Assembly: GCA_023229365.1 (NCBI GenBank)
Contig: JALNZK010000012.1
Location: 3,472-67,471, forward strand
DNA: 64,000 nt
Direction: 5' to 3'
Source of the DNA: Pseudomonadota bacterium
GTDB lineage: Bacteria; Myxococcota_A; Polyangia; JAAYKL01
The notes under the pieces were generated by a model. It saw only the letters and a list, made by a program, of their open reading frames with translations, was not told the origin of the DNA and searched no databases. Positions 19,921-63,912 of this stretch are shown one piece after another. The translations under genes were made by a program, and so were the position numbers. Every line of letters begins with the position of its first letter. Within the stretch, counting starts at the first letter, position 1.

Positions 19921-21507
19921 ATGCAGCGTTTCCGGTGTTCGATCCTGATGGGTCTTCTCGCCCTCGCGGCGGCCTCGTGCGAGGGGGCAGCCCCCGGTCC
20001 CCTCCCGGCGCCCGACGCGCGCCAGATCGTCGGCGGCTCCGTGGAGGCGGGCTATCCCGCAGTGGGCGCGCTCACGTTCTACTACCCGGGGAACGGCTAC
20101 GTGGGATCGTTCTGCACCGCGTCGCTCATCGACGACGACTGGCTGCTCACCGCCGCGCACTGCGTGCTCCCGTCCTCCGACTTCACGCCGGTGCCGGCGC
20201 TCACGTACTTCTACGTCGGCGGAAACGCGAACCCGCCGAGCCTCGGCGAGGAGCCGACCGCGGGCGATCTCTACCAGGCGGAGTCGTTCTTCCCGCACCC
20301 GAGCTACAGCACCATGACCAGCGCGAACGACATCGCGCTCGTCCACCTCGCGGCCCCCATCGACGGCATCACTCCGCTCCAGATCTACACCGGCACGGCG
20401 CTCGCGGCGGAGGAGGGAGAGCCGGCGTTCTACGTCGGGTTCGGGGTGACCACCGGCAGCGGCACCGACAGCGGCGTCAAGCGCTCGGCGTACATCGACA
20501 TCGGCGACGTCGGCACGTTGTCCTACACGAGCTACTACGACGGCACGGGGATCTGCTTCGGCGACTCGGGCGGCCCGGGGCTCTTCGACTTCGGCTCCGG
20601 CGATCGGATCATCGGCGTCAACTCGACGGTCGGCGGGTCCCCGACGTGCATGAGCTCGTACAACGACACCCGCGTCGACGCTTACGACACCTGGGTCGCG
20701 AACACGATGGCGTCGAACCCGGACTGCGGGAGCGATTCGGATCTGTGCGTCTGCCCGGATGCGTGCCAGGTCGACGGCAGCTGCGACAACACCGTGTGCC
20801 AGACGCTGGACTGCGAGGGGCTCTACGATTGCGCCTCCGGGTGCGGGGTGACCGAAGAGGACTGCTACATCGGCTGCTACCTGACCGCGACCTTCTCGGG
20901 ACAGGGCCAGTTCGACGATCTCATGGTCTGCGCGTACGAGAACTGCGACGGCATCTCGGATGACACCGAGTACGCCGAGTGCGTCGCCGAGGACTGCGCG
21001 ACGGAGCTCGACGACTGCTTCCCGCCGTGCGACATCCTCGGCGGCGACTGCGACGACGACGCCTGCTACGTCACCACGACCGCCACGACCGCGTGCTTCC
21101 CTTCCGTCGGCAACGTCGACGGAGAGGACTGCTCGGACACGTCGACCACGCTCGGGTGCGCGGACGGCCTGATGTGCTACGGCGGCACCTGCCACGACTT
21201 CTGCCTCGGCGAAGGGGACTGCGAGGCGGACGAGACCTGTAACGACGGCCTCTTCTCCAGCTACGATCCGAACCTCGGCTACTGCGACGGGGACGCGGAC
21301 TCGGACACCGACTCGGACGCCGACACCGATTCGGACTCGGACACCGACTCGGACACCGATTCGGACGCGGATTCGGACTCGGACTCCGACTCGGATTCGG
21401 ACGGCGATGGCGACGCCGATTCCGACACGACCGGCGACAGCTCGTGCGGGTGCGGCGCGGCGGGCCTCGGCGACTCGGGCGGCCTCCTCTCGCTCCTGCT
21501 CGGTTGA
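19921..21507 (+). CDS. secreted trypsin-like (S1) serine protease with a Cys-rich C-terminal domain, an SD/TD repeat and a MYXO-CTERM-like tail
   Basis: GGAGG RBS; lipobox LAAASC; IVGG, TAAHC and GDSGGP catalytic motifs; DSDTDSD repeat; C-terminal GCGAAGLGDSGGLLSLLLG. Confidence 0.85.
   Translation: MQRFRCSILMGLLALAAASCEGAAPGPLPAPDARQIVGGSVEAGYPAVGALTFYYPGNGYVGSFCTASLIDDDWLLTAAHCVLPSSDFTPVPALTYFYVGGNANPPSLGEEPTAGDLYQAESFFPHPSYSTMTSANDIALVHLAAPIDGITPLQIYTGTALAAEEGEPAFYVGFGVTTGSGTDSGVKRSAYIDIGDVGTLSYTSYYDGTGICFGDSGGPGLFDFGSGDRIIGVNSTVGGSPTCMSSYNDTRVDAYDTWVANTMASNPDCGSDSDLCVCPDACQVDGSCDNTVCQTLDCEGLYDCASGCGVTEEDCYIGCYLTATFSGQGQFDDLMVCAYENCDGISDDTEYAECVAEDCATELDDCFPPCDILGGDCDDDACYVTTTATTACFPSVGNVDGEDCSDTSTTLGCADGLMCYGGTCHDFCLGEGDCEADETCNDGLFSSYDPNLGYCDGDADSDTDSDADTDSDSDTDSDTDSDADSDSDSDSDSDGDGDADSDTTGDSSCGCGAAGLGDSGGLLSLLLG
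21286..21432 (+). repeat. degenerate hexanucleotide repeat (GAC-WCS)n encoding a (D-S/T)n linker
   Basis: The hexamer GACTCGGACACC recurs directly. Confidence 0.8.
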
Positions 21508-21619
21508 TCGAGCGCCCTTGGAACAGGACGACAAAGCGAGGGCGCGCGCCAGGCGGGACTACCTCTTCGCGGGAGCGACGGCCCTGGCCGCGGCCATCGT
21601 CGGGATCGCGGATCGCGGA

Positions 21620-21949
21620 ATGCTGTCCGAGATCCCGATCCCCGTTGCGGTCGCCGCAATCATCCTGGCCGCGGTCGTGTACGTCCGCGTCGCCTACGGG
21701 CTGCTGCGCGGACGCGACGACGACTCCGCCGCGCCGGCCACGGAGCGGATGCGGCGGATGGCGTTCATCTGGCTCATCCTCACGGCCGTGATCGGCGTCG
21801 CCGTCGTCAAGGATCCCGCCGCGTCCGTATGGGAGGGCGGGGCGGCAGGGCTCGAGCTCCGCGACTGGGCCGCCGGCGCCGCCGGGATCGCCGTCGTCGT
21901 CGCGGCGATCGTGCGCGCGGTCCGGATGATCTCTCTCGGGAGGCGGTGA
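21620..21949 (+). CDS. small membrane protein (hypothetical). An alternative TTG start at 21518 is possible.
   Basis: Three hydrophobic helices. The overlapping antisense ORFs are Arg/Ser-rich junk. Confidence 0.4.
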   Translation: MLSEIPIPVAVAAIILAAVVYVRVAYGLLRGRDDDSAAPATERMRRMAFIWLILTAVIGVAVVKDPAASVWEGGAAGLELRDWAAGAAGIAVVVAAIVRAVRMISLGRR

Positions 21950-23605: not shown

Positions 23606-23612
23606 GTTCCCT

Positions 23613-24409: not shown

Positions 24410-25294
24410 TCAATCGGACATCCTGACGAACGCGTTGTCGACCAGCACCTTGGTCTGGGAGCTCGGGCGGTAGCTGATCAGCGCGTCGCCGAGGACCGCG
24501 AAGTTGTCGTCCTTGCCGACGCTGTCCAGCGTGTACTCGAACCGGATGACGGACAAGGCGGTGTTGGCCCCGTCGAGGCCGTCCACGGTCTTGCCCTCCT
24601 CGTAGAAGTACTCGCAATCGGTGACCGTGCCCGCGCCGCTCGAAGGCATGCCCACGGAAACGTTGTCGAACGAGTACGCGATGGTGCATTTCGTGTCGTC
24701 TATCAGCGTGTAGTTGTAACTCTCGATGCGCTGCTCGATCACCGCGCCGGAGCCGTCCGTCAGCACGAGGTTCGACTCGCGCAGGTAGGAGCTCCCACCG
24801 TCACTGAACAGGAGATTGTACGAATCTCCAAAAACGTAGACGCTGTCGTGGTTGAAATCGGGCCCGAGGAACAGGACGTCACCGGCGCTGCCGAGCGAGT
24901 ACATGGTGTCCTGCGTGAAGTTCATGTAGACCGCCGCGAGCTCGTCCAGGGTGCTCACCTCGCCGAGATCCTCGGCCCAACCGCCGCTGAAGGAGATCCT
25001 CCCGCCGGAGCCGACGGACCACTCGCCGTCCCGGGCGGTCGTCTCTTCGACGGGCGTCAACGCGGTGACCTCCTCGTGCGTGTGGGTGAGGGTGAACGTC
25101 CCGTCCGCTCGCAGCGCCAACGTCCAGGTGTCCGTCTCCGGGTCCGAGGCGTCTCCCGGCTGGAAGATCCTCGTGCGCACCCAGGTTCCTGCGAGATCCG
25201 CGGCCGCGCCGCCGCCGCTCTCGTCGCAAGCGAGGGCGCTCGCGGCGCAGAGAGCCCCGAGAACCCCGCACAGGACAGCCCGTTTCGAAGGCAT
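24410..25294 (-). CDS. hypothetical lipoprotein
   Basis: Signal peptide and lipobox (ASALAC). Confidence 0.55.
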   Translation of the reverse strand: MPSKRAVLCGVLGALCAASALACDESGGGAAADLAGTWVRTRIFQPGDASDPETDTWTLALRADGTFTLTHTHEEVTALTPVEETTARDGEWSVGSGGRISFSGGWAEDLGEVSTLDELAAVYMNFTQDTMYSLGSAGDVLFLGPDFNHDSVYVFGDSYNLLFSDGGSSYLRESNLVLTDGSGAVIEQRIESYNYTLIDDTKCTIAYSFDNVSVGMPSSGAGTVTDCEYFYEEGKTVDGLDGANTALSVIRFEYTLDSVGKDDNFAVLGDALISYRPSSQTKVLVDNAFVRMSD

Positions 25295-25438
25295 GCTTCG
25301 TGACCCTCCTCGATGAGGAACGACGTCGAAGACACGTCGTCTCAATTGTGCAGTTTTACCCCCTCGAGCCCCCCGACTCAAGGCTTGACTCGCCTTCAAC
25401 CGGGGGCGCGGAACCGAATTCGAGTGTATGCTTCGGCC

Positions 25439-29674: not shown

Positions 29675-31222
29675 TCACGGCGCGAGGCGGGCGATGAACA
29701 TGTCGCGATCGCCGGCCGAGACGACCGTGTCGTCCGCGGGCTGGCCGAGGTCGAACGCGGCTGCGTCCTCGAACGAGCCGACGAGCACCGGCGAGTCGTC
29801 CGTCAGCGCGGCCAGGGCGCTCGGCCGCTCGGTGCCGATGCCGCCCATGGCGCGCGTCCAAATTACCGCGCCTTCGGCGTCGTACCTCGCCAGCGCGACG
29901 TCGAAGCCGCCAGCGGTGGCCAGAACGCATTCCCCCGACGTCTCGGCGCCGAACGTGATCGTGCCGTCGGACCACCCGAACTGTCCGGCAGCGTAGATCG
30001 GGCCGGCCGCGCCCTCCATCGATGCGAGGGCGTGGCCGCTGCCCTTGCCCGCCTTCACGGCCCAGGCGAGGCTGCCGTCTGGCTCGTACGCCGCCGTGAA
30101 CATCCCGCCGAGGTACCCGGTGAGCGTGGTCTGGTTCGGCTCGCCCTGCCCGAAAGTGACAGCCCAGCTGTAGTCGCCGGCCACGGTCACACCGCCGTCG
30201 CCGAACTCGCCGATCGCGCGTGCGCGACCGCCATCGCCTTGAGGGAGGCCGTTCGCGGTCACCGCCCATGCGAGCGCGCCGTCCGGGTCGAACCGGGCCA
30301 CGACCAGGCCGATGTTGCTCTGGTAGAGCGTGGCCTCGTTCGGCTCGCCGGACCCGAGAACCAGGGTGCCGGAGAAGGCTCCGGCCATCGCGAACGAGCC
30401 GTCCGGATACGCCACCACGTCGTACGGGAACAGGTTGCCGTCGCCGTCCGTGGCCCGGGCGAACACGAGCGACCGCGACGGATCGTACCGCGCGAAGAAG
30501 CCTTGCTGGCACCCCGGCGTGGCGGTCAGCTCCACCTCGCCGGGCTCGCCCTCCCCGAGGAGGATCGAACCGACGAAGATTCCCACGACGATCGCGGAGC
30601 CGTCCTCGAGCGCGGCCGCGGCGTAGCCGGCGGCTCCGGCGCCGCCCGCTTCGGATACCACCTCGATCAGCCCGCCGTCGGCTGCGTACCAAGCGGCGAA
30701 GAAGGCGTACTCCTCGTCGCCCCACGGGAGCGTGGTCTCGTTCGCCTCGCCCTCGCCGAACACCGCGTCGCCCTCGACCTGGCCCGTGACGATCGACGTG
30801 CCGTCCGCGAACGCGTCGGCGCCGAGCACGGTGTCGATCCCGGCGCTGCCTGCTCTCTCGGCCCAGAGCAGCGCGCCGTCCGGGCCGTACGCGGCCACGA
30901 ACACGTCCTTGCCGCCCGCCGCGGCGAGCGCGATCTCTCCGGGCTCGCCCTCGCCGAACACCGCGGTCTGCTCGAACGAGCCGACCGCTATCGACGTGCC
31001 GTCCGCGGCGGTCGCGACGTGGGAGGCGCGATCCTCGCCGGGCCCGCCGGCGCTCCGCACCCACACGGTCGCCGGGATTCCGGTGTCGGTATCCCCGTCG
31101 ACGTCGGTGTCCGCGTCGGAATCCGCGTCGGCGTCCGAGCCGGCCGTCTCGCCGAAGATCAGGCCGGTCTTTCCGCAGCCCGCGAGGAGAAGGGTGGCGG
31201 CGATCGCGGCGGCTCGGGTCAT
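29675..31222 (-). CDS. lipoprotein with a (D-S/T/A)n linker and SBBP-type beta-propeller repeats
   Basis: Lipobox LLAGCG; [19 protein letters not shown]; repeated ...YGPDGALLWA... blades. Confidence 0.7.
   Translation of the reverse strand: MTRAAAIAATLLLAGCGKTGLIFGETAGSDADADSDADTDVDGDTDTGIPATVWVRSAGGPGEDRASHVATAADGTSIAVGSFEQTAVFGEGEPGEIALAAAGGKDVFVAAYGPDGALLWAERAGSAGIDTVLGADAFADGTSIVTGQVEGDAVFGEGEANETTLPWGDEEYAFFAAWYAADGGLIEVVSEAGGAGAAGYAAAALEDGSAIVVGIFVGSILLGEGEPGEVELTATPGCQQGFFARYDPSRSLVFARATDGDGNLFPYDVVAYPDGSFAMAGAFSGTLVLGSGEPNEATLYQSNIGLVVARFDPDGALAWAVTANGLPQGDGGRARAIGEFGDGGVTVAGDYSWAVTFGQGEPNQTTLTGYLGGMFTAAYEPDGSLAWAVKAGKGSGHALASMEGAAGPIYAAGQFGWSDGTITFGAETSGECVLATAGGFDVALARYDAEGAVIWTRAMGGIGTERPSALAALTDDSPVLVGSFEDAAAFDLGQPADDTVVSAGDRDMFIARLAP
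31079..31141 (-). repeat. short GAC-NNN repeat encoding the D-S/A/T linker of the lipoprotein
   Basis: GTCGGTGTCCGCGTCGGAATCCGCGTCGGCGTC periodicity. Confidence 0.6.
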
Positions 31223-31226: not shown

Positions 31227-32198
31227 TCATCTCTTTCTTTTCGGCTTCACGGGCGCGGGGCTTGCGCCCGGGCCGAGCGCCATCGCCGCGACCGGATCCA
31301 GGGCCGCGCGCTTCGCGAGCACGTAGTACGCGATCGCCGCCGCTATCAACGTGGCGATCCCGATGATCTGCGAGGTGGAGAGCGGGCCGAGCCCGCCGCG
31401 GCCGACGTCGCCGCGCAGGAGCTCCATCGCGGCGCGCGTGGCGCCGTAGTACATCGTGAACACCAGGAAGACCTGCCCGCGGAAGCGCGTGCGCCGCCGG
31501 ACGATCATCGTGATCGCGAACGCGATCCAGCCGTTGAGCACCTCCATGAGCTGCGTCGGGTAGACGAGCGCCGACCAGGCGTCCGACGCGCGCACGAGCC
31601 CGTCGTGCACGTGGTGGAGGAACGCCGGCGCGCCGTCGAGCTGCTTGGCGCTGCCGAACGAGCTCTCGGCGAGGCGCGTCTTCAGATCGGCGAGCTGCAC
31701 GTCCCAGTTCGGGAAGCGCACGCCGAGCGCGCGGACGAAGCCGGGCGCGTCCGCCGGAATCGGCCTGCCGTAGTCGCAGCCGAAGAGGAAGCAGCCGATG
31801 CGCGTGATGCCGAGCCCGGCCGCGAGCGTCGGCACGACGACGTCCGCCCACGGCAGGAGCCGGATTCTCGCCCGCCTCAGGTAGATCCACGAGCCGACAA
31901 AGCCGCCGAGGAAGCCGCCGTACGCGACGATCCCGCCGCCGCGCGGATCGAGGAACGTGCCGAGGCTCGCGCCGTAAAACAGCGACGGGTTGGTGACGAT
32001 GTACAGCAGCCGCGAGCCGAAGAGCGCCGCGATCGCGGTCACGACGAAGCAGCCCATGAGCCGATCCTTGGGCAGCCCGTCCTTGGCGCCGAGGCGCATG
32101 ACGATGTTCCACCCGACGATCAGCGAGAGCGCGAGCATCATCCCGTACGAGAAGATCGGGAGATCGATGCCGGGGATCGTGAACGCGACCGGGTGCAT
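31227..32198 (-). CDS. lgt: prolipoprotein diacylglyceryl transferase
   Basis: Full-length Lgt similarity (GIDLPIFSYGMMLALS...; conserved H/Y/G signature region). Confidence 0.9.
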   Translation of the reverse strand: MHPVAFTIPGIDLPIFSYGMMLALSLIVGWNIVMRLGAKDGLPKDRLMGCFVVTAIAALFGSRLLYIVTNPSLFYGASLGTFLDPRGGGIVAYGGFLGGFVGSWIYLRRARIRLLPWADVVVPTLAAGLGITRIGCFLFGCDYGRPIPADAPGFVRALGVRFPNWDVQLADLKTRLAESSFGSAKQLDGAPAFLHHVHDGLVRASDAWSALVYPTQLMEVLNGWIAFAITMIVRRRTRFRGQVFLVFTMYYGATRAAMELLRGDVGRGGLGPLSTSQIIGIATLIAAAIAYYVLAKRAALDPVAAMALGPGASPAPVKPKRKR

Positions 32199-40366: not shown

Positions 40367-41119
40367 ATGAAAACCGCATCAGCCGCGTTCTGGATCGCCG
40401 CGTTCGCCATCGGTTGCGGCAACTCCACCGCCGCGCGAGCCCCGGACTCGTCCGCGGATCAGTCCGTCGATCCGGCTCCGATCTCCACGGTCGAGGCGCC
40501 CCCGGCTCCCGTCGAGGCGGAGGTGCCGAAGGCGCCGCCCGAGCCCCCGCCGCCCCCCAAGCGTCTCGCCCTTCTTCCTCTCGGCGAGATCCCGGCGAGC
40601 GACATCGCCCTCGCCACGAGCTCGATCGCCAAGACCTACGGGTGGATCGTCGACGTGCTGCCGCCGCAGGACCCGCCTTCTTCGGCGTGGTACGCGAAGC
40701 GGAAGCGCCACCGCGCCGAGAAGATCCTCGACTGGCTGCGGCCGCAGCTCCCCGAGGGCGCGGACCGGATCATGGCGCTCACCGCGCTCGACATCTCGAC
40801 GACCAAGCCGCCGCGCGCGGACTGGGGGATCTGCGGGCTCGCCGACATGCCCGGCACGGCGTCGGTGGTGTCCACGTTCCGCATCCGGAAGAAGATGGGC
40901 GGCGCGACCGGCGCCGAGCGCGAGGCGCGGTACGAGCAGCGGCTCCGCGATCTGACGGCGCACGAGTTCGGCCACCAGCTCGGCCTCGATCACTGCCCGA
41001 ACCGCGGGTGCCTCCTCGAGGACGCGAAGGGCACGGTGTCGACCTTCGACCGATCGAAAGGCGCGCTCTGCGCCGACTGCGCCGCGAAGCTCGCCGAGGC
41101 CGGCTTCCCGCTGCCGTGA
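40367..41119 (+). CDS. archaemetzincin-like (peptidase M54) zinc metallopeptidase lipoprotein
   Basis: Lipobox AIGCG; HEFGHQLGLDHCPNRGCLL (HExxHxxGxxHC...C). Confidence 0.8.
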   Translation: MKTASAAFWIAAFAIGCGNSTAARAPDSSADQSVDPAPISTVEAPPAPVEAEVPKAPPEPPPPPKRLALLPLGEIPASDIALATSSIAKTYGWIVDVLPPQDPPSSAWYAKRKRHRAEKILDWLRPQLPEGADRIMALTALDISTTKPPRADWGICGLADMPGTASVVSTFRIRKKMGGATGAEREARYEQRLRDLTAHEFGHQLGLDHCPNRGCLLEDAKGTVSTFDRSKGALCADCAAKLAEAGFPLP

Positions 41120-43606: not shown

Positions 43607-44653
43607 ATGCGGTTCCATCTTTTCTCTTGCTTGCAGACGCGCTGGCTCGCGGCGGTGCTCGCCGGGTGCGCGTCGATGGAAACGGCCGACAACGCGGGCG
43701 AGTCGGACGCGGATTCAGATAGCGACAGCGACACGGACGCCGATTCGGACGCGGACACCGATTCGGATGCGGACACCGACACCGCCTCGGATTCGGACAC
43801 GGACACGGACACAGACTCGGACTCGGGTACGGATAGCGATACGGACACCGACACCGACGCGGACACCGATACCGACACGGACACCGACTCGGATACGGAC
43901 GCGGACACGGATATCGAGTGTGGCGACGGGAACCTCGATTCCGGAGAGCTCTGCGACGACGGCGACAGCCCGCCCGCGGGCGGCGACGGCTGCGACGCGA
44001 GCTGCCAGATCGAGCGGTACTGGGCGTGCGACGGCGCGCCGAGCGCCTGCCATCACGTGAACATCCTGTTCGCGATCGCGAACGCCGACGACGCGACCTA
44101 CCGGGCCAACATCGCCGCGATCACGGGCGGCACGGTGGACCACTTCGACGCGGCGGCCGGCACGCCGACGCTCCTGCAGATGCAGGGCTACGACTGCGTC
44201 TACACCCACCCAAACAGCACCTACGCCGATGCGACCGGGCTCGGGAACCTGCTCGCGAGCTACGTCGACTGGGGCGGCACGGTCGTCATCGGCGTGTTCT
44301 CGACGTACACCTCCTTCGAGCTGGGCGGCGCCATCATGGGATCGTCCTATTGTCCGGTGTACAGCCCGTCCTCCACGAGCGTCGCGGGCACCTATACCTA
44401 CGCGGGGGGCGGCACGAGCCAGATCCACTATTCGGTTTCGTCGTATGCGACCGGCTACCGTGACGACATCGCGCTCCAGGGGGCGGGGATCGCGGACGGC
44501 GCGTACACCGATGGCGAGATCGCGCACGCCTATCGGCCGGACTACAAGGTCGTGTTCAGCAACGGAGACGGCAGCGCCGGCCTGGGCGGCACCGGCGACT
44601 GGCCGCGGCTCATGGCCAACGCGTGCTCCGCGGGCCACTACCTGGGTTATTGA
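43607..44653 (+). CDS. lipoprotein with a (S/T-D)n linker, a Myxococcus cysteine-rich repeat and a C-terminal uncharacterised domain
   Basis: Lipobox LAGCAS; TD repeats; [17 protein letters not shown]...[11 protein letters not shown]. Confidence 0.7.
43702..43912 (+). repeat. hexanucleotide (GAC-WCS)n repeat encoding the D-S/T linker
   Basis: The hexamer GACACGGACTCG recurs. Confidence 0.8.
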
Positions 44654-44667: not shown

Positions 44668-45744
44668 ATGCGCCTATCGAAACGGGTCATCGCCTTGATC
44701 GCTTCGTCCATCCCGTGGCTGGCGGTTTGCGCGTGCATGAACGCCACTATCGAGCCGGGCCAATCGGACTCGGACACGGACAGCGACTCGGACACGGACA
44801 GCGACTCGGGCACGGACAGCGATACCGACACGGACAGCGATACGGACACGGACGGCGACTCGGACACGGACAGCGATACGGACACGGACGGCGACTCAGG
44901 TCCGGACACGGATACGGACACCGACACCGACGCGGACACCGACGCCGACGCGGACACCGATACCGACACGGACACGGATGCCGATACCGACACGGACATC
45001 GAGTGCGGCGACGGGAACCTCGATTCCGGAGAGCTGTGCGACGACGGCGACAGCCCGCCCTCAGGCGGCGACGGCTGCGACGCGAGCTGCCAGATCGAGT
45101 GGTACTGGGCGTGCGACGGCACGCCGAGCCTCTGCCACCGCGTCAGCATCCTGTTCGCGCTCGCGGACTCCGACGACGCCACCTACCGCGCCAGCATCGC
45201 CGCGATCACCGGCGCCGCCGTGGATCACATCGACGCGATATCATCCACCCCGACGCTCGCGCAGATGCAGGCGTACGACTGCGTCTTCACGCACTCCAAC
45301 AACCCCTACTACGACCCGACGACGATGGGGAACAACCTCGCGAGCTACGTCGACTGGGGCGGGACGGTCGTCGTCGGCGTCTTCGCCCTCTCGACGGGGT
45401 GGGCGCTCGGCGGGACGATCATGGGCTCGGGGTACATGCCGGTCTACAGCCCGTCGGGGGGCCACTCCTCCTCGTCCCTGAGCTACTCCGGCGACGGCAT
45501 GTCCCCTATCCACTACGCGGTCTCGTCCTACTCGAGCGTGTTCCGCAACGACCTCGCGCTCCAGGGATCCGGGGTCGCGGACGGCCACTACACGGACGGC
45601 ACCATCGCGCACGCCTATCGAGCGGACTACAAGGTGATCTACAGCAACGGCTACGCCAACGCGAGCACGGGGTACGGCCCGGTCGGCGACTGGGCGCGGC
45701 TCATGGCGAACTCCTGCTCGGCCGCGTACCACTCGGGGACCTGA
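44668..45744 (+). CDS. paralogue of the upstream lipoprotein ((S/T-D)n linker, Myxococcus cysteine-rich repeat, same C-terminal domain)
   Basis: GAGGAGGGG RBS; near-identical [32 protein letters not shown] block. Confidence 0.7.
   Translation: MRLSKRVIALIASSIPWLAVCACMNATIEPGQSDSDTDSDSDTDSDSGTDSDTDTDSDTDTDGDSDTDSDTDTDGDSGPDTDTDTDTDADTDADADTDTDTDTDADTDTDIECGDGNLDSGELCDDGDSPPSGGDGCDASCQIEWYWACDGTPSLCHRVSILFALADSDDATYRASIAAITGAAVDHIDAISSTPTLAQMQAYDCVFTHSNNPYYDPTTMGNNLASYVDWGGTVVVGVFALSTGWALGGTIMGSGYMPVYSPSGGHSSSSLSYSGDGMSPIHYAVSSYSSVFRNDLALQGSGVADGHYTDGTIAHAYRADYKVIYSNGYANASTGYGPVGDWARLMANSCSAAYHSGT
44764..44997 (+). repeat. hexanucleotide (GAC-WCS)n repeat encoding the D-S/T linker
   Basis: GACTCGGACACGGACAGC periodicity. 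Confidence 0.8.
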
Positions 45745-49782: not shown

Positions 49783-51345
49783 TCATTCGGTGAGCTTGAG
49801 GATGAAGGCGTCCGCTGTCGTGCCCTCGGAGTGGGCGTGCAGCGGGGGCTGGCCGTAGGGGCCGTCCCAGGAGGAGTCGGAGCGCCCGTACACGTAGAGG
49901 GTGCCGCCCCCGCCCGGGACGATCCCGTAGGCGTAGTCCTGGGAGTCGGCGCCGTAGAGCGTGTGCCAGGCGTAGGAGCCGTCCGCGCCGAGCGCGAGGA
50001 TCCTGGCGTCGAAGCCGTTCGCGTGGGCGTGGTCCGGCTCCTCGCCGTCCGGGCCGACCGAGTACCCGCCGCTCCCGGCCGCGTACAGCGAGTCGGCCGT
50101 GCCGGCGGCGATCTTCACGGGGTTGGAGTAGGGGATGCCGCGGCTGTGGAACGTGTGCCACTCGTAGGCGCCGTCCGCGTCGAGCTTGAGGACGTAGTCC
50201 TGGCCGACGTCCCATTCGAACGCGTGGATCGGCTCCTCGCCCTCCGGCCCGGTCCACTCCGGCCCGGACGGCCCGCTCAGGAAGACCCCGCCGCTCCCGT
50301 CCACGCCGACCCCCGGGCTCTCGTGGGTCCCGGTGGGGTAGAAGGTGTGCCACGCGTACGCGCCGTCCGGGCCCAGCTTGAAGATCACGGAGTTGTCCGA
50401 GCCCGTCGTGTACCCCTGCAGCGGGTCCTGCCCCTCCGGGCCGTGGATCCCGCCGTAGGACGTCCCGGCGAGGTACAGGTTGCCGCTCCCGTCGATCGCG
50501 AGCCACCCGCCGAGCGCCTCCTCGAGCTGCACGCTCCAGAGGAGCGCGCCGTCTCCGTCGAGCTGGAAGACGTTCAGATCGTGGGAGTAGGACCACGGAT
50601 CGAACGGGTTGTTCGTCCGCGTGGGGATCGCCAGGTCGAGGTGCCCGCTCCCGTCGACGGCGATCCCCAGAGGAGAGCACAAATCGCCGAACGCCCGGAA
50701 CGTGTGCCAGAGGTAGCCGCCGTCGGCGTTCAGGCCGAGCACGAAAACGTTGCAGGCGCCCTCCGTGTAGGCGTGGAGCGGGCTCTCGCCGCCCGGCCCG
50801 TCCCAGGACGCGTTCGCCTTGCCGGCCACGAACGCGCCGCCGTCCCCGCCGGCGGCGATCACCGCCGCCCAGCACGACGGCCCGAGGAAGGTGTGCCACT
50901 GGTACTCCCCGTCCGGGCCCAGCGCGAGGACGAAGCCGTCCCGAACGCTTCCAGAGTGGGGGTGGAGCGGCGGCTGGTCCTCCGGGCCGTCCCACGAGGA
51001 GGAGGATCCCCCCGCCAGGAAGACCCCGCCCGCGGCGTCGACGGCGATGGCGTCGGCGTAGGACTCGAACGAGCTCGCCCAGAACGTGTGCCAGAGGTAG
51101 TGGTGGTCGATGTCGACGACGGACACGGACTCCGTGTCCGCGACCGCGATGGACTCGGTGTCGGCGCCGGTGTCGGTGTCGGCGTCGACGTCGGTGTCGG
51201 CGTCGGAACCGGAGCCCGTGTCGGTATCGGTGTCCGCGTCGGCGTCGGTCCCGGAGTCGGCCGCGTGCTGGGCGGCGCTGCCGTAGCAGCCGATCGCAAA
51301 GAGCGCGATCGCGAGCCCGGTGGTTGTTCCTCGAGACATCGTCAT
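49783..51345 (-). CDS. lipoprotein with a (D-T/A/S)n linker and SBBP beta-propeller repeats (recurrent Y-x-WHTF blades)
   Basis: Lipobox FAIGCYG; TD repeats; the motifs YLWHTF, YQWHTF, YAWHTF and YEWHTF. Confidence 0.7.
   Translation of the reverse strand: MTMSRGTTTGLAIALFAIGCYGSAAQHAADSGTDADADTDTDTGSGSDADTDVDADTDTGADTESIAVADTESVSVVDIDHHYLWHTFWASSFESYADAIAVDAAGGVFLAGGSSSSWDGPEDQPPLHPHSGSVRDGFVLALGPDGEYQWHTFLGPSCWAAVIAAGGDGGAFVAGKANASWDGPGGESPLHAYTEGACNVFVLGLNADGGYLWHTFRAFGDLCSPLGIAVDGSGHLDLAIPTRTNNPFDPWSYSHDLNVFQLDGDGALLWSVQLEEALGGWLAIDGSGNLYLAGTSYGGIHGPEGQDPLQGYTTGSDNSVIFKLGPDGAYAWHTFYPTGTHESPGVGVDGSGGVFLSGPSGPEWTGPEGEEPIHAFEWDVGQDYVLKLDADGAYEWHTFHSRGIPYSNPVKIAAGTADSLYAAGSGGYSVGPDGEEPDHAHANGFDARILALGADGSYAWHTLYGADSQDYAYGIVPGGGGTLYVYGRSDSSWDGPYGQPPLHAHSEGTTADAFILKLTE
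51106..51255 (-). repeat. GAC-NNN repeat encoding the D-T/A linker
   Basis: GTCGGTGTCGGCGTCGACGTC periodicity. Confidence 0.7.
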
Positions 51346-51380
51346 TCTCTTCGAAGCGAGCGTATCACAGCTCCAGGCGA

Positions 51381-52385
51381 TTAGCGTTCGTTTGCGCACT
51401 GCGGGTCGTCGGCGAGGGGATCGCCCGAGACCGCGCTCGCGAGCGCGCGGCAGCCGGCGCAGCCCGGGAGGTCGCAGGCCGCGCAGCGCGGGCCCGAGAG
51501 GCGAGGGCGGATCGCGTCCGGCGCCCAGGCGGCGAGCCGCTCCCGGATCGCCGCGAACGGCTCCTCGAGGACGTTGCCGACGGCGATCGGCAGGCGCCGG
51601 CACGGGTACACCGTCCCGTCGGGCATGAGGCACATCGAGTCCGGCCCGAGGTTGCAAAGCGCGCCCGAGAGCGGCTCGTCGGCGCCCGGGCTCGTGTCCA
51701 CCCAGAACGCCCGGTGCGCGAGCAGATCCCCGGGCTCCGCGTCGACGCCGGCGGCGGCGGCGATCGCGCGCGCGGCCGCGCTCCACTCCCGCGGGCCGAG
51801 GAGATCGCCGCGCATGGCGGCGCCCCGCCCGAGCGGGACGAACCTCTCGAAGATGACGCCGGAAGCCCCGCTCTCCCGGGCCAGGTCGACGGCGGAGGCG
51901 ATCGACGCGGCGTTGCGTCTCGAGAGCGTGAGCATGAGCACGACCGGGCGACCGGTCGCGAGGAATCGCGGGAGGTTTTGCATCACCGCGTCGAAGTGGC
52001 CGGGCCAGCGCAGCGCATCGTCGATCCCACGATCGCCGCCCTCGATCGAGATCTTGAAGCACCCGAGCTTGGGGAGCGCCGCGATCTCGTCGAGGACCGC
52101 GCGATCGGCGATCGTCCCGTTCGTGATGACGTTCACCTCGTCGAGCGCCTCGTGGCGGTGCAGGGCGCCGAGAAGATCGGTGAGGCGCGGCTGGAGGAAC
52201 GGCTCGCCGCCGGTGACGTTGATCGAGACGCGGTGGTCGCGCAACCCGCCGAGCACTCGCCCGGCGACGTCGACGAGGCCGCCCAGCCCGAGCTCGCGCG
52301 CGCTCGTGAAGTCGGACTGATAGCAGTGCGCGCAGCTGCCGTCGCACCTGTCCGTCACGTGCCACTGGAAGCCGAATTCGCGCAT
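51381..52385 (-). CDS. radical SAM / SPASM-domain protein (short, 334 aa)
   Basis: N-terminal CDGSCAHC (CxxxCxxC); C-terminal SPASM cysteines CNLGPDSMC...PC and CAACDLPGCAGC. Confidence 0.8.
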   Translation of the reverse strand: MREFGFQWHVTDRCDGSCAHCYQSDFTSARELGLGGLVDVAGRVLGGLRDHRVSINVTGGEPFLQPRLTDLLGALHRHEALDEVNVITNGTIADRAVLDEIAALPKLGCFKISIEGGDRGIDDALRWPGHFDAVMQNLPRFLATGRPVVLMLTLSRRNAASIASAVDLARESGASGVIFERFVPLGRGAAMRGDLLGPREWSAAARAIAAAAGVDAEPGDLLAHRAFWVDTSPGADEPLSGALCNLGPDSMCLMPDGTVYPCRRLPIAVGNVLEEPFAAIRERLAAWAPDAIRPRLSGPRCAACDLPGCAGCRALASAVSGDPLADDPQCANER

Positions 52386-52449: not shown

Positions 52450-54468
52450 CTAGTCGGTCAGCAGGCGAATGTTGTCGACATAGACGTCGTTGCCGTATCC
52501 GGAATTGGCGACGAGCCGGAACTGGGCGGTCGCGCTGCCGGCGAGCTCGGTCGAGAGATCCACGAGCTCCGCGGCCCACGCGTCACCTTCGCTCGAGTAG
52601 CGCAGGAATAGCGGACCGACGTTGGTCCAAGCCGTGCCGTCGAATACCTGCACCTGGATACTGTCGTTGGCGTAGCCATAGCCGTCGTCGTGGAACATGT
52701 CGAACGAGAGAAACGCAACCGTCGCTGTAGACAGATCGATCGCTGCCGACTCGAGGCTCGCCGTGTCACCGCTGTAGTCGTAGGAATTGAAACGCGCGAT
52801 GTACGAGCCATCGGTTGGCGCACCGCCGGCCGGGTTCACCGTCGCCGCGGCCTGTGCCCAAGTCGCAGTTCCGGTCGGCGCGCCGAGGGTGAGGTTGGTG
52901 GGCGGCCACGCCTCGAAGCTCTCGGACCACAGAACCGTCAGCGCCACGATGGAGTCCACCGTGACGGTCACCGTGTAGTCGACCGCCGGGAAGCCGGTGG
53001 CGGCCTCGTCCAGGACGATGTAGTAGGTCGCGCCGTCGGTGAGCGTCACCGCGAACGAACCCTCGCCCGTCGCCGTGTCGTCGGTAGCCAGCACGGTGCC
53101 CGTGCCGTCCCGGATCTCAACGATCGCGTCGTCGGTGAGCGTCTCGAGACAGTACGAAACGGTGGCGAAGACCGTGTCGGTGGTGGTGCCGCCGTCCACG
53201 GCGAACGAGAAGTAGTCGTCGCCGCTCGTGGTGTCGTCCTCCAGCAGGCCGCACGCCGCGACGTCGTCGCCGGCCGCCGTCAAGGTGACCGCGGTGCTCA
53301 CGGCGGTGGCGATGTCGCCGTTGCCGTTGGAGGTGCCGGTCACGTCGCCCGTCTCGGTGACGCCGTCCACCGGGCACGCGCAGGTCGGGGGCAGGCACTC
53401 CACCGGAGCCGCGGCGTCGTCGCAGCCGTCATCGCACACCGTCGTCTCGGTCCAGCCGAGGCCGTCGGCGTCGCAGGTCTCGATGTTGTCGCCGACGCTG
53501 CACTGCGTCTCGCCCGGCGTGCAGATCTGCTCGCAGGCGTACTCGCCCGAGCCCACGCTGGTCTCCGCGCACGCCGCCGGGCAGTCGAGCAGCACCCACT
53601 CGAGGCCGTCCTCGGAACAGGTCTCCAGGTTGGCGTCGCCGTTGCACAGCGTCGTGTCGGGAACGCACAGGGCGTCGTACACGCACGCTTCGCCGACGTA
53701 CCACTCGTCGGCCCAGTCGCCGGTGTAGAGGAACGCCAGGGTGACCGCCGGCTCGCCGGCGAAGGCCGCGAGGTCTGCGGACGACGTGACCCACACCTCG
53801 TTCGTGTAGCCGGTCGAGTCGTACTCCGCGATCAGGGTGAAGTCCGTCACGTCGGTGACCGTCGCCTGGGCCGCGCCGTACACGAAGTGCCCGTCATAGT
53901 AAGTTGGGAAATAGATCGCTTCTTCGAAAACGAGGACCGGCGTGGTCATGCCCGTGAGATCGAACGCCGGCGAGATCAGCCAGTCGCTCGCGCCCGTGGC
54001 CACGTTGTCGTCGTTGTGCCAGGCGTACGCGGGATCGTCGCCGTCCACGAACGGCCAATCGGCCTCGAACTGCCACCCCGCCGGGTCGCCCGCTTGGATC
54101 TCGGTCCAGCCCTCCGGCATGACGCCGCCGTCGAACGACTCGCAGGGCTCGGCCTCTTCGCCGCCATCGACCCCGGCGTCTTCGGCGCCGCCGTCCGCGT
54201 CGGTGTCGGTGTCGGTGTCGGTGTCAGTGTCAGTGTCGGTATCGGTGTCAGTGTCCGAATCAGTGTCAGTGTCGGTATCGGTGTCGGTGTCCGAATCGGT
54301 GTCGGTGTCGGTGTCGGTGTCCGAGTCGGTGTCGGTGTCGGTGTCGGTGTCCGTGTCCGAATCACCGCCGCCTCCGCCTCCGTCGTCGCATCCGGAGATC
54401 GAGAGAGTCGAGAACCCCAATACCAGCACCAGCACTGCAATCCACCCAAGTTTTCCGTTCATTCTCAT
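52450..54468 (-). CDS. large lipoprotein with a long (T-D)n repeat, an N-terminal jelly-roll-like domain, Cys-rich repeats and a C-terminal beta-sandwich domain
   Basis: Lipobox SISGCDD; a roughly 60-residue [14 protein letters not shown] stretch; the [10 protein letters not shown] / [10 protein letters not shown] repeated unit. Confidence 0.65.
54196..54366 (-). repeat. near-perfect (GTCGGT/GTCAGT)n hexanucleotide repeat encoding (T-D)n
   Basis: GTCGGTGTCGGTGTCGGTGTCAGTGTCAGTGTCGGTATC... Confidence 0.85.
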
Positions 54469-56555: not shown

Positions 56556-56559
56556 GCGA

Positions 56560-59871: not shown

Positions 59872-59946
59872 GTCGATCCTCCTCGCGTGCGGTGCGCAAC
59901 GTTAACCCGATTTTGAGAAAAACCCAATCCGCGCGATGATCCCGGC

Positions 59947-61482: not shown

Positions 61483-61498
61483 AGGGCGGGAACGCCGG

Positions 61499-62329
61499 TC
61501 AGAACACCGGATCCGCACAGCAGCGGAAGCCCGTAGAATAGTCGTGGTAGGTCGTCGTGTGCGCGGTCGTCGTGTACGTGCACCCCGGGCCGTTGATCGA
61601 GCCGTCCGCGTAGAAGCCGCCCTTGAACGTGCCGTCCGGATCCGCGATCCACTCGTGCAGGTTGCCGTGCATGTCGAAGATCCCCTCGGCCGTGACGCAG
61701 CCGGGGTTCGCGCCGGTCGTGTCGACCGTGTCCTCCTGCTGATTGATCCCCGGATCGTTCATGTGCTCGCCGTCCCAGACGCCATCGCTCGTGCCGAAGT
61801 AGTCGACAACGGGGTGCGTGCCCGGGTACGTGTCGTTGCACGCGCCGTCGACGTACGTGTCGCCGTACGGCCAGGTCCACTCGAGAGGGCCCTGGCAGGC
61901 GCGCAGCCACTCGTCGAGCGTGCACAACCGCCTGCCCGCGGCCTCGCACGCCGTCGCCGCGACGTCGCCGCTGATGTAGCCTTGCGGCACGACACCTCCG
62001 ATCGAGGTCGCGACTCCGTCTTCCGGGACGTCGTAGGGGGACCAGTCGACGAGCGAGGCCTCCCACCTGTCGACGCACGCCGACCCCGCGAGCGCCATCC
62101 CGGCGGGGCAGGGGGAGATCTCGGTGTCCGTGTCCGTACCGCCGTCCGGGCCGGCGTCCGAATCGGAACCGGAATCCGCGTCCGCGTCCGAGTCGGAGTC
62201 GGTGTCCGAGTCGGAGTCGGTGTCGGAGTCGGAGTCGGTGTCCGAGTCGCCCGCCGCGCCGTCGCCGCAGCCGGCGGCGCCCGAGCCGAGGCACAGCGCC
62301 GCGATCGTCAGCCAGGTGAGCCTCGCCAC
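61499..62329 (-). CDS. lipoprotein with a (S-D/T-D)n linker and a formylglycine-generating-enzyme (FGE-sulfatase) domain
   Basis: GTG start 8 nt after the upstream stop; lipobox GAAGCG; RLCTLDEW, DMHGNLHEW, GFRCC. Confidence 0.75.
   Translation of the reverse strand: MARLTWLTIAALCLGSGAAGCGDGAAGDSDTDSDSDTDSDSDTDSDSDADADSGSDSDAGPDGGTDTDTEISPCPAGMALAGSACVDRWEASLVDWSPYDVPEDGVATSIGGVVPQGYISGDVAATACEAAGRRLCTLDEWLRACQGPLEWTWPYGDTYVDGACNDTYPGTHPVVDYFGTSDGVWDGEHMNDPGINQQEDTVDTTGANPGCVTAEGIFDMHGNLHEWIADPDGTFKGGFYADGSINGPGCTYTTTAHTTTYHDYSTGFRCCADPVF
62121..62250 (-). repeat. (GAGTCG/GTGTCC)n repeat encoding the SD/TD linker
   Basis: GTCCGAGTCGGAGTCGGTGTCCGAGTCGGAGTCGGTGTCGGAGTCGGAGTC. Confidence 0.8.
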
Positions 62330-62337
62330 GGATCGGC

Positions 62338-63912
62338 CTACGGCTCGTACCAGTCGCACAGCCGCTTCGGGATCTCGAACGACTGCGCGAGGGAGTCGGT
62401 GAACAGCGGCCCGACCTGGTACGGCGCGTCGAACGTCCCGTCGCCGTTGCCCATGTAGATCTCCAGGATGGACGGGCCCGTCCACGCGTCGCCGGAGTAG
62501 CAGTGGCCCACGATGACGTCCATGTCACCGTTGAAGTCGAAATCGAAGACCTGGGCGCTGCTCGTCACGCCCGGCGAGTCCGAGCCCGACTCGATCGCGG
62601 GCTCGAGGTCGATCGCCGGGTAGGCCGTCGAGGCGAACCCGCCGGAGCCGTCGCCGACGTAGTACCAGCTCTGCCCCGGATCGCCGTCGTCGTCGAATCC
62701 CATGAGCACATCGCCGTTGTCGTCCGAGGTGAAGTCGGCGAACACGGTGGAGTTGACCGGGTAGTTGTGCGTGAGGACGGACGTCGGCGTGGAGCTGAAC
62801 GTGCCGTCGCCGACCCCGTCCAGCCGGTAGACGTTCGCCGAGGTCGCGCCGCCGCTCGCGAAGACGGCGAACACGATGTCCTTAACGTCGTCGCCGGTGA
62901 TGTCCATCGCCTGCCGGCTCTGGGAGTAGCCCCACTGGCCGTCCACGACGCTCCCCGTGCCGAGCGTGAACGCCTCGCGCAGGGTGAAGGCGCACGAGGT
63001 GTCCGGGTAGTCCGCGACCGCGCAGTCCGCCGTGCGGATCGTCCCGTTGTTCAGGAAGACCCAGCCGGTGATCGACTCGATGTACCCGGAGGAGGGCGAC
63101 CGTGTCGCCGTGACGAGGTCGAACAGGTTGTCCGAGTTGACGTCCGCCACGATGCCGCCCGCGCGCAAGGCGGTGGGGCCGACGTCGATCTGGACGAACT
63201 CGTCCTCCTTGTCGGTGCGGTAGAAGAAGTACATCTCGAAATCGCCCGTCGTGCCGTCCGCGGTCGCGTCGTGGGCGATGAAGTCGGTCCGGCCGTCGTC
63301 GTCGAAGTCGGCGATCGCGAACGCGCGGTAGTTGTCGTCGATGTCGTCCGCCGGCCATTCGATCTGATCCTGGAAGGTGCCGTCCTGGTTCGACAGGTAG
63401 AAGTAGAAGGTGCCGTTGTTGTTCGCCTGGATGATGTACTCCGGGAACGGATCGAGGGGGTACGGATCATCGACGTCGAGGATGTCGTCCGAGTCTCCGT
63501 CCGCCGAGAAGGGATCGGAGATCACGCAGTCCGCGCCGTAGTCCGCCTCCTCGAGGTCGGAGATGGAGTCGTTGTCGTCGTCGGTGTCCGCGTTGTCCCC
63601 GGTGCCGTCGCTGTCGTGATCGTCCCACTCGGACGGGTCGGTGGGGAACGCGTCATCGTCGTCCGGGATGCCGTCGGAGTCCTGGTCCGGGGCCTCGGTG
63701 TCGGAATCGATATCGGTGTCCGTGTCCGAATCGGTGTCCGTGTCCGAATCCGAATCCGAATCCGTGTCGACGTCCGTGTCGGTATCGGTGTCGGAATCGG
63801 AGTCCGAGTCCGATGCGGACGGCTCGTTGGCCGACTCCGCGCACCCGAGCGCCGCGAGCCACAGCAGCGATGCCGACACGAAGAGCCCGTGTTTCCAGCG
63901 AAGTGTTCGCAT
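62338..63912 (-). CDS. lipoprotein with a (S/T-D)n linker, Asp-rich calcium-binding-like segments and FG-GAP/VCBS-type beta-propeller repeats
   Basis: GGAGG RBS; lipobox LAALGCAES; FDDDGRTDF and FNGDMDVIV FG-GAP-like blades. Confidence 0.7.
   Translation of the reverse strand: MRTLRWKHGLFVSASLLWLAALGCAESANEPSASDSDSDSDTDTDTDVDTDSDSDSDTDTDSDTDTDIDSDTEAPDQDSDGIPDDDDAFPTDPSEWDDHDSDGTGDNADTDDDNDSISDLEEADYGADCVISDPFSADGDSDDILDVDDPYPLDPFPEYIIQANNNGTFYFYLSNQDGTFQDQIEWPADDIDDNYRAFAIADFDDDGRTDFIAHDATADGTTGDFEMYFFYRTDKEDEFVQIDVGPTALRAGGIVADVNSDNLFDLVTATRSPSSGYIESITGWVFLNNGTIRTADCAVADYPDTSCAFTLREAFTLGTGSVVDGQWGYSQSRQAMDITGDDVKDIVFAVFASGGATSANVYRLDGVGDGTFSSTPTSVLTHNYPVNSTVFADFTSDDNGDVLMGFDDDGDPGQSWYYVGDGSGGFASTAYPAIDLEPAIESGSDSPGVTSSAQVFDFDFNGDMDVIVGHCYSGDAWTGPSILEIYMGNGDGTFDAPYQVGPLFTDSLAQSFEIPKRLCDWYEP
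63697..63822 (-). repeat. (GTCGGA/GTCCGA)n repeat encoding the SD/TD linker
   Basis: GGTGTCGGAATCGATATCGGTGTCCGTGTCCGAATCGGTGTCCGTGTCCGAATCCGAATCC. Confidence 0.8.

Follow-up and report, generated by a model that had tools for sequence, protein, structure and literature searches.

Eight genes with an alternating aspartate tract

The stretch of DNA analysed here, hereafter the window, comprises 64,000 nucleotides of contig JALNZK010000012.1 (G+C about 70%) and encodes eight predicted exported proteins that share a linker in which Asp alternates with another residue, X (a D-x tract). An original prediction made from this DNA had read these linkers as Ser/Thr-Asp spacers encoded by slippage-prone repeats. 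The eight genes, numbered g1 to g8, and their tracts are the following:

g1, 19921-21507, plus strand: predicted lipoprotein (AAS/C cleavage); a serine protease domain of trypsin fold and a Cys-rich region, then the D-x tract near the C-terminus and a short hydrophobic tail with Cys-Gly
g1 tract, 21286-21429, plus strand: 24 D-x dipeptides (residues 456-503) before a 25-residue tail; Tandem Repeats Finder (TRF) array at 21291-21419
g2, 29675-31222, minus strand: predicted lipoprotein (lipobox LAGC) with an SBBP-like beta-propeller, directly downstream of lgt; weak match to NCBIfam Lepto_SBBP_lipo
g2 tract, 31082-31135, minus strand: 9 D-x dipeptides, the shortest and most degenerate tract (X = A, T, S, V, G)
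g3, 43607-44653, plus strand: predicted lipoprotein (lipobox LAGC) with an 83-residue linker, a Myxococcus-type Cys-rich repeat and a GATase1/ThuA-like domain of about 200 residues
g3 tract, 43706-43915, plus strand: 33 D-x dipeptides; TRF array at 43704-43912
g4, 44668-45744, plus strand: paralog in tandem with g3, to which its globular part is 68% identical; lipobox VCAC, linker of 89 residues
g4 tract, 44767-45000, plus strand: 37 D-x dipeptides; 18-nt unit GACACGGACACGGACAGC repeated 13 times at 81% match (TRF); the one tract of the window whose DNA is clearly more periodic than expected
g5, 49783-51345, minus strand: predicted lipoprotein (lipobox AIGC) with an SBBP-like beta-propeller; 94%-identical orthologs P0005 and P0006
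g5 tract, 51169-51246, minus strand: 11 D-x dipeptides in two blocks; 18-nt unit duplicated, single-copy in relatives L001 and L002
g6, 52450-54468, minus strand: predicted lipoprotein (lipobox ISGC) with a choice-of-anchor J domain (NF038128, E=7e-17)
g6 tract, 54190-54363, minus strand: 29 D-x dipeptides, nearly pure Asp-Thr; array of GTCGGT on the plus strand, 26.5 copies at 83% match
g7, 61499-62329, minus strand: predicted lipoprotein (lipobox AAGC) with an FGE-sulfatase-like domain (PF03781, E=2e-9); GTG start inferred
g7 tract, 62171-62248, minus strand: 13 D-x dipeptides, then a degenerate acidic stretch down to 62117
g8, 62338-63912, minus strand: predicted lipoprotein (lipobox ALGC) with acidic DxDxDG-type repeats and FG-GAP repeats (PF13517, E=5e-9)
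g8 tract, 63697-63810, minus strand: 19 D-x dipeptides

All eight reading frames are intact on translation, and each contains an in-frame Asp-X alternation where a D-(S/T) linker had been predicted. The list is also complete: a relaxed six-frame scan of the window for five or more consecutive D-x dipeptides found none outside the eight genes (the other 43 genes are tract-free). The reading frame of the tract is always D-x. Segments of at least six D[STA] dipeptides number 11 in the 64-kb window, and none was found in 80 loci from diverse bacteria and archaea (1,237,392 bases). This set, used as a composition control, came from a scan of species genomes anchored on an adjacent pyruvate-oxidoreductase gene; the scan returned nothing closer than 55% identity and no synteny.

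The N-termini of g2 to g8 show a positive charge, a hydrophobic stretch and a lipobox ending in Cys. The lipobox, matched as [LVIA][ASTGC][GAS]C together with a check of the hydrophobic region, lies at residues 16-27 in these proteins and in g1. In g2 to g8 the tract begins at positions +8 to +15 after the lipobox Cys. The idea that the linker sits at the same place in each protein is thus borne out insofar as unrelated exported proteins share a spacer near the anchor, but the onset is not directly after the Cys. Tracts span roughly 18-79 residues. Their lengths do differ between genes, from 9 to 37 dipeptides; the upper end of the predicted range (about 7 to about 60 dipeptides) is, however, too high, the longest tract being the one with 37 (79 residues). 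Position X is most often Thr or Ser. Ala, Gly, Val and Ile are common too, at odds with the proposed restriction to Ser and Thr. Whole linkers measure 34-89 residues, contain about 45% Asp and have no basic residue.

Seven of the 11 predicted lipoproteins of the window carry a post-Cys tract at +8 to +15. Tract-less predicted lipoproteins are encoded at 9961-10548 (Lcl_C domain), 24410-25297 and 40367-41119 (M54-like, with a Pro/Ala/Glu-rich linker), and several proteins exported by a Sec-type route are also tract-free. In relatives, too, the M54-like and Lcl_C lipoproteins are free of it.

The predicted globular parts that follow or precede the tract are mutually unrelated overall: trypsin (Pfam Trypsin, E=5.9e-19, in g1), SBBP propellers, GATase1-like, choice-of-anchor J, FGE-sulfatase and FG-GAP. 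Even the SBBP-like propellers of g2 and g5 are only distantly related (25% identity). The Cys-rich repeat of g3 matches TIGR02232 (E=3e-8). The conserved domain of about 200 residues in g3 and g4 (residues 150-345 of g3) corresponds to no Pfam family; the structural model of this domain is of high confidence and shows a weak likeness to class I glutamine amidotransferase/ThuA-like folds. The globular part of g6, used as query, gave one weak match only and no ortholog series.

In g1, the frame stops after the tail, without continuation in another frame. The tail (21430-21507, SSCGCGAAGLGDSGGLLSLLLG) has a Cys-Gly motif and only seven hydrophobic residues, with no basic residue. It resembles the first half of a MYXO-CTERM signal (Cys motif, membrane-spanning helix, basic tail) without matching the model: the last 43 residues gave no match even at E<=10, and this assignment was discarded.

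A probable tether and its cargo

Outside the tract, the eight proteins are poor in basic residues. Lys and Arg make up 0.9-3.6% of their globular parts (0.9% in g6, 1.1% in g1), with a calculated isoelectric point (pI) of about 4.1. The 43 other genes of the window have a median Lys+Arg content of 11.5% and a minimum of 5.4%, so the two sets do not overlap (Mann-Whitney U=0, p=9e-6); 17 housekeeping genes among the 43 have a median pI of 7.85. In 11 tract proteins of relatives the content is 1.3-3.8%, compared with 9.6-12.6% in tract-less lipoproteins. These figures show that the tract is associated with acidic, Lys/Arg-poor cargo. Protection against the g1 protease was considered as a cause of the depletion and rejected: the residue aligned (by eye) to trypsin position 189 is Gly, not Asp, hence g1 lends no support to Lys/Arg specificity.

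The structure of the linker was examined in g3. An AlphaFold2 model based on the family alignment gives residues 1-103 a confidence score (pLDDT) of 40-50 and no secondary structure, while residues 150-345 score above 90; no helix or strand appears up to residue 138. Judging from their composition, the other seven linkers would be unstructured too. Between Cys+1 and the first element of secondary structure, all linkers exceed 22 residues (as modelled for g3 and by composition for the others). Contour lengths of such tethers are about 12-32 nm, and rough coil estimates, derived from generic polymer scaling and not from measurement, are 4-7 nm.

Our interpretation, which we consider probable, is that the tracts are intrinsically disordered polyanionic tethers, with a length set for each protein, and that they mark acidic and probably surface-displayed lipoproteins. 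The tether would join the N-terminal lipid anchor (in g1, the C-terminal tail) to the globular domain, and would set the reach of the latter. The cargo itself is strongly acidic, with hardly any Lys or Arg. The tether would be kept extended, and the domain away from the membrane, by repulsion between charges within the chain and between the chain and its cargo, and a like-charged cargo would avoid collapse onto the tether. Length would be set separately in each protein family and maintained by selection, the DNA repeat being mainly a by-product of the selected peptide pattern; occasional gain or loss of 18-24-nt units may provide raw material for adjusting or rebuilding the tether. Lipoproteins marked in this way, probably surface-displayed or extracellular, would be common in an uncultured diderm lineage and recurrent in metagenomes.

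On this interpretation the tract would be a lineage-typical polyanionic form of the ordinary lipoprotein tether, and not a mutational switch. About half of the outer-membrane lipoproteins of E. coli have disordered N-terminal linkers of more than 22 residues, which are needed for sorting (10.1101/2021.01.05.425367). As in the tethers of RcsF, Pal and LpoB (10.1101/2021.01.05.425367), a segment of more than 22 residues, predicted to be unstructured, separates the lipobox Cys from the first folded element. As in Gram-negative lipoprotein tethers generally, length appears to matter and the sequence can be replaced by other unstructured sequence; the window, moreover, encodes Lgt and components of a diderm envelope. 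Unlike E. coli-type tethers, the linkers of the window are strictly alternating polyanions encoded by imperfect tandem-repeat DNA, are common to most lipoproteins of the region, and are coupled to Lys/Arg-poor cargo.

Replacement of the tract was indeed observed among distant homologs of the g3/g4 domain. This domain was found in 47 protein clusters, which include lipobox, plain signal-peptide and PEP-CTERM variants. The filler between anchor and domain can be Pro/Ala/Asp-rich (P0014), Ser/Gly/Thr-rich (P0015) or Thr/Ser/Gly/Asp/Pro-rich (P0017), or can consist of (Gly-Asp)n (P0025), TTDNP repeats (P0030) or extra Cys-rich repeats (P0013); some homologs have no filler at all, and among these are proteins anchored at the C-terminus by PEP-CTERM (P0050). 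The Thr/Ser-rich style of P0017 recurs in one of its neighbours. These homologs show that the tract can be replaced by other low-complexity linkers, and the variety of fillers makes the linker an exchangeable element with a lineage-specific "dialect". The choice-of-anchor J domain and the PEP-CTERM variants point to a surface or extracellular location, if the family names are taken at their stated meaning.

The net charge of the linkers, -34 to -42, raises the possibility that the tracts form a cation-binding stalk or coat, in which Ca2+, Mg2+ or other metals make the tether stiffer or link it to lipopolysaccharide, to exopolysaccharide or to proteins nearby. Counter-ions must condense on such a chain; the g8 tract runs directly into DxDxDG-type acidic repeats; at least one relative (L090) comes from deep-sea sediment; and the proposal is compatible with a tether. 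However, alternating Asp without a defined loop geometry is no known specific Ca2+ site, and homologs from other lineages have uncharged Ser-rich or Pro/Ala-rich linkers in the same place, so that metal binding is not required for the domain. We regard a cation-dependent role as possible but rather unlikely.

A different proposal is that the polyanionic tract is itself a sorting signal, recognised for outer-membrane crossing or for delivery to vesicles in the manner of the Bacteroidota lipoprotein export signal (LES). In Bacteroidota it is acidic residues following the Cys that bring about export to the surface (PMC5080379), and the tracts likewise place negative charge after a putatively lipidated Cys, in probable association with surface display. 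The tract pairs with a distinct Lys/Arg-poor class, the tract-less lipoproteins being of normal composition. In Myxococcus xanthus, Lys at +2 is an inner-membrane retention signal and Ala at +7 directs export to the matrix (PMC3222651); no tract protein has Lys at +2, and only g3 has Ala at +7. The positions do not agree with a signal of the Bacteroidota type, which comprises 3-5 residues and is position-critical at +2 to +6, whereas the tracts are far longer, start at +8 to +15 and belong to another lineage. Residues +2 to +6 of the seven tract lipoproteins read GKTGL, ASMET, MNATI, YGSAA, DDGGG, GDGAA and AESAN. Acidic residues at +2/+3 are found in g6 alone (CDDGGG), and the LES pattern proper (at least two acidic residues at +3 to +6 after Lys, Gln or Ser) is absent, g6 alone being comparable. 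Furthermore, a signal would need neither 20-90 residues nor a family-specific length, and the tract of g1 is C-terminal. Recognition of the tract as a signal is therefore unlikely in our opinion.

Linker length and repeat DNA among relatives

Relatives permitted a comparison of linker length, counted from the lipobox Cys up to the residue at which conservation of the domain begins. Synteny with the window was found in metagenome contigs L084 and L085, around ApbE-g3-g4, and in L092, around CoaBC. A scan of metagenomes with the g8 domain added four orthologs (L087, L088, L090 and L091), of which L090 is SDBV01, from a deep-sea sediment assembly (PMC6401483). An ortholog of g1 was sought in the syntenic L092, where a different gene adjoins the steroid dehydrogenase. 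The lengths were:

g3 linker: 83 residues in the window, 83 in L084 (67% identity), 84 in L085 (66%)
g4 linker: 89 residues in the window, 128 in L084 (90 plus an inserted 38-residue six-Cys module)
g8 linker: 51 residues in the window, 53 in L090 (78% identity), 56 in L091 (80%), 141 in L087 (65%; 103 without the six-Cys module)

Linker length is thus shown to be family-specific and stable among close orthologs. The sequence within is not. When g3 is aligned with its L084 ortholog, the Asp register is kept over all 83 residues, and where the two differ Asp is substituted, not shifted; X positions are identical in 19 of 45 cases, a figure that we judge, without a calculation, to be close to chance for a three-letter alphabet. 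The L085 ortholog of g3 has a tract built from a different 24-nt unit (8.9 copies, 94% match) with the same linker length, and would represent a young, freshly rebuilt array. Relatives of 59-72% G+C retain the tract. This, with a frame that is always D-x and with the ordinary, randomly arranged synonymous codons described below, shows that selection acts on the peptide and not on the DNA.

Arrays purer than those of the window were seen in two relatives, at L085:1523-1735 (24 nt x 8.9, 94%) and L086:5884-5961 (12 nt x 6.5, 96%). In another lipoprotein of L086 the tract extends over about 100 residues and changes from (Asp-Ser)n to (Asp-Thr)n.

Strain variants could be examined for g5 only. In its orthologs at 94% identity, from two assemblies of public sequencing runs, the mature protein differs by a single indel, which lies in the tract and comprises six residues. 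The 18-nt unit CGACGCCGACACCGACRY is present twice in the window and once in relatives L001 and L002, indicating that gain or loss of units does occur.

In the window itself, Tandem Repeats Finder detects an array in each of the eight genes, at 68-83% match; g7 has, in addition, a short array of 18-nt period with a 95% match. Perfect runs of the hexamer extend over 11-27 nt at most, or 1.8-4.5 units. The maximum belongs to g6, whose GTCGGT array had been described as near-perfect over about 170 nt: the extent is right (159-168 nt), but with an 83% match and a longest perfect run of 27 nt the array is near-perfect as peptide only. As a null for periodicity, synonymous codons were shuffled, tract by tract, among positions of the same amino acid. 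In six of the eight tracts the shuffled sequences were comparable to the real ones, both in self-matching at 6, 12, 18 and 24 nt and in the length of the best perfect run. The g4 tract shows a modest excess of 18-nt identity (lag-18 z=3.3) and a 43-nt perfect run (P=0.014), g8 has a 39-nt perfect run of 18-nt period (P=0.008), and g5 and g6 show a marginal 18-nt excess. Codon usage in the tracts is ordinary, with GAT at 23% of Asp codons as compared with 22% in housekeeping genes. From the shuffle and the codon usage we conclude that most of the DNA periodicity follows from the pattern of the peptide, and that 18-nt units have left traces of being duplicated now and then. A striking DNA repeat can, in other words, be a passive consequence of a selected peptide pattern.

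These data bear on the proposal, put forward in the original prediction, that the tracts are contingency loci, in which slippage-hypermutable repeats would make tether lengths vary, or genes switch, within a population and so generate adaptive surface variation. Like the simple-sequence contingency loci of pathogens, the window has tandem short repeats inside genes for probable surface proteins. The unit gained or lost in g5, the 18-nt excess in g4 and g8, the near-pure arrays of some relatives (24 nt x 8.9, 94%; 12 nt x 6.5, 96%) and one contig end that falls inside an array are in its favour. On the other hand, perfect hexamer runs do not exceed 4.5 units, and peptide and codon usage account for periodicity in six of eight tracts. 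All units are multiples of three (6, 12, 18 and 24 nt, in frame), and slippage could therefore not act as an on/off switch. Syntenic orthologs at 65-80% identity have linkers of almost the same length, and a second assembly of the same population, 100% identical over 14,352 bases, is identical through g2. Unlike contingency loci, these repeats are impure, lie within the reading frame without any long perfect run of a short unit, and keep their length among orthologs; we consider hypermutable variation most improbable. A change in copy number is borne out by the 18-nt unit in g5. The comparison of repeat lengths among relatives, the check suggested with the proposal, shows one g5 unit that differs, an identical g2, and nearly constant linkers in g3, g4 and g8.

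The arrays had also been expected to confound assembly. One contig end out of 22 examined does fall inside an array (the short-read contig L001 of a relative, in the g6 array); however, some 20 arrays, counting those of the window and of related contigs, came through assembly unbroken, and the problem appears minor. Taken as a whole, the earlier interpretation is partly supported.

If the DNA repeat is a by-product, one may ask whether the peptide is one too, that is, whether repeat expansion in a G+C-rich genome is simply tolerated wherever disorder suffices. Linker type is freely exchanged among distant homologs, X positions are near random, and myxobacterial proteomes are rich in Asp-containing low-complexity regions (PMC6821194). 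In the survey of Ntountoumi et al. (2019), myxobacteria are the bacteria richest in such regions, with Asp as the second most frequent residue (15%) and most of the proteins of unknown function (PMC6821194). The source of the window has Myxococcus-type Cys-rich repeats (TIGR02232/DUF4215); the post-lipobox position, alternation, length conservation and Lys/Arg-poor cargo described here go beyond the survey, which dealt with composition only. A neutral origin is hard to reconcile with a frame that is always D-x and a location that is in every case the linker next to the anchor of an exported protein. Besides, neither the 43 other genes of the window nor 1.24 Mb of other genomes contain tracts, their length is conserved through array turnover, and they are retained across 59-72% G+C. 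Accordingly, we consider neutral tolerance very unlikely.

Exact DNA matches between tracts reach 34 nt (g4-g5), 32 nt (g3-g4) and 27 nt (g3-g5), in regions 43697-43915 (g3), 44764-45000 (g4) and 51148-51261 (g5). Identity over some 27-34 nt is about the minimum that supports homologous recombination in bacteria. A side observation concerns the six-Cys module already mentioned, a sequence of about 38 residues (C-P-Y-x-C ... GG-T ... E-Y-x-C ... CC-x2-GG) that lies inside the Asp-Thr tract of unrelated proteins. It is carried by the g4 ortholog (L084:11065-12252), by the g8 ortholog of L087 (frame from about 4906) and by the metagenomic tract proteins P0180, P0187, P0223, P0229 and P0242; no Pfam or NCBIfam family matches it, and the window does not contain it. 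Possibly the module is a small disulfide knot that entered these proteins through recombination within tract DNA.

A broader speculation brings these elements together in a dedicated route of surface display, composed of a lipobox, a short neutral or acidic pre-tract, the tether and a Lys/Arg-poor cargo. Sorting machinery would recognise the tether, or the tether would pass through the outer membrane as a thread; each protein would have a length suited to holding its domain at a defined height in a cation-bridged surface layer, and the repeat DNA would act as a recombination-friendly joint, as in the insertion of the 38-residue six-Cys module into unrelated proteins. We offer this scheme as a doubtful one.

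Metagenomic occurrence, resemblance to staphylococcal stalks and gene surroundings

An exhaustive phmmer search with residues 1-95 of g6 against 1.84 billion cluster representatives returned 2,748 representatives at E<=0.001 and 116 at E<=1e-10; E-values are unreliable for a low-complexity query, and the best 150 of the 2,748 were checked by eye and by pattern. Among these best 150, 144 have a tract of at least 12 residues, located within the first 70 residues in 129; a lipobox-like Cys lies upstream in 103 of the 129 (median gap 16 residues). Their median total tract is 68 residues (range 20-198) and the median Lys+Arg content of the remainder is 3.7%. By these predicted features, the architecture of lipobox, tract and acidic cargo is widespread in public data. 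A search for Asp-Thr or Asp-Ser repeat lipoproteins found no description of it in the literature library searched.

A simple sequence rule (lipobox, alternating Asp-X tract and cargo with less than 4% Lys+Arg) may thus delimit a large unannotated class, probably of surface-exposed lipoproteins of uncultured sediment bacteria. The tracts are masked as low complexity, and annotation pipelines possibly mis-start or mishandle such genes. The class also offers a natural test case for the question of whether tether length is under selection. The main points of interest are the constraint on length despite array turnover, the tight link with Lys/Arg-poor cargo and the unrecognised abundance in metagenomes.

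Besides the unreliability of the E-values, the following observations weigh against the interpretation of the tracts as tethers of selected length:

(i). Localisation, lipidation and extension are predicted properties, and the lipoboxes were assigned by pattern only.

(ii). In the g3 family, Lys+Arg content is low (1.5-5.6%) whatever the type of linker. Low content is therefore a property of the exported domain and is not caused by the tract, which accompanies acidic cargo but is not needed for it.

(iii). The length constraint fades with distance. In a g2 homolog of 37% identity the linker comes to about 66 residues instead of 34, and the g8 ortholog of L087 has 103 residues plus the module instead of 51.

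(iv). Length conservation was seen in three families, with three or four orthologs each, and a low indel rate, rather than selection, could be the source of constant length.

A formal resemblance is also found in the Ser-Asp stalks of staphylococcal SdrC/D/E and ClfA/B. The SdrC repeat is a highly extended, compaction-resistant stalk owing to charge repulsion (PMC9881980). Like these stalks, the tracts consist of alternating dipeptides of Asp and a hydroxy amino acid beside the anchor and are, as predicted here and described there, disordered and extended (PMC9881980). Both are encoded by degenerate 18-nt units, and in both the number of copies changes over evolution. The unit of g4, GAC-WCG-GAC-ACG-GAC-AGC, is similar to the staphylococcal GAYTCNGAYTCNGAYAGY. 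The differences are also clear: the anchor is an N-terminal lipid in a diderm and not a C-terminal LPXTG cell-wall anchor, Thr predominates and Ala, Gly and Val are tolerated, and no SdgA/SdgB-like enzyme was seen among the window genes scanned. Membership in the Sdr/Clf families was rejected, with scores of 15-54 bits against cut-offs of 999-2500 and matches over the repeat region only, and no LPx[TSA]G motif occurs in the eight tract proteins. The likeness is convergence, not homology.

The staphylococcal precedent suggests a role as scaffold for post-translational modification, with Ser and Thr O-glycosylated or phosphorylated. Staphylococcal Ser-Asp repeats are glycosylated by SdgA and SdgB and resist proteolysis (PMC3794999), most X positions of the tracts are Ser or Thr, and the local composition matches the SD regions of SdrC, SdrD, ClfA and ClfB (E down to 4e-15). 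Many X positions are, however, Ala, Gly, Val or Ile, and in g2 Ser and Thr occupy only four of nine; the window genes scanned include no glycosyltransferase domain, and X positions drift freely between orthologs. We find it quite unlikely that modification is what the tracts are for.

The tract genes are dispersed among housekeeping genes, including those for CoaBC, a pseudouridine synthase, ApbE, radical-SAM enzymes, pyruvate oxidoreductase, MalQ, a GGDEF protein and two tRNA-Ser, and form neither an operon nor a system. Features of relevance in their surroundings are:

lgt, 31227-32198, minus strand: prolipoprotein diacylglyceryl transferase (PF01790), directly upstream of g2; the listed reading frames overlap by 4 bases
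tRNA-Ser pair, 10597-10683 and 10712-10799, minus strand: adjacent genes with anticodons GGA and CGA, which decode TCC and TCG

MlaE and MlaF are also encoded in the window and, together with lgt, identify the host as a diderm with a standard lipoprotein pathway. The Cys-rich repeat suggests an affinity with Myxococcota, though it is no proof. Exact matches to g1, g2 and g5, all on one contig, were found among proteins of a metagenome-assembled genome labelled "Proteobacteria/Pseudomonadota bacterium" (MCK9459762 and MCK9459771 among these; the latter, at NCBI, is the exact g2 protein). No exact match to g3, g4, g6, g7 or g8 was found in a collection of 15 billion proteins, with 14 start-codon variants tried; these proteins may have been called with other starts or handled differently owing to the low-complexity tract.

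TCC and TCG, the codons read by the two adjacent tRNA-Ser, make up 84% of Ser codons in the tracts, an agreement that is probably a coincidence. In L084, a gene for a Ser/Thr protein kinase of 951 residues (L084:6975-9830), not present in the window, lies between ApbE and the g3 ortholog. Finally, the close relative L001 (90-97% DNA identity) has an insertion of 4.2 kb (L001:2834-7053, opposite window positions 51319-51391) between a radical-SAM/SPASM gene and g5; it carries XylR_N/V4R, GAF-STAS, STAS and two HATPase_c genes, a partner-switching module.

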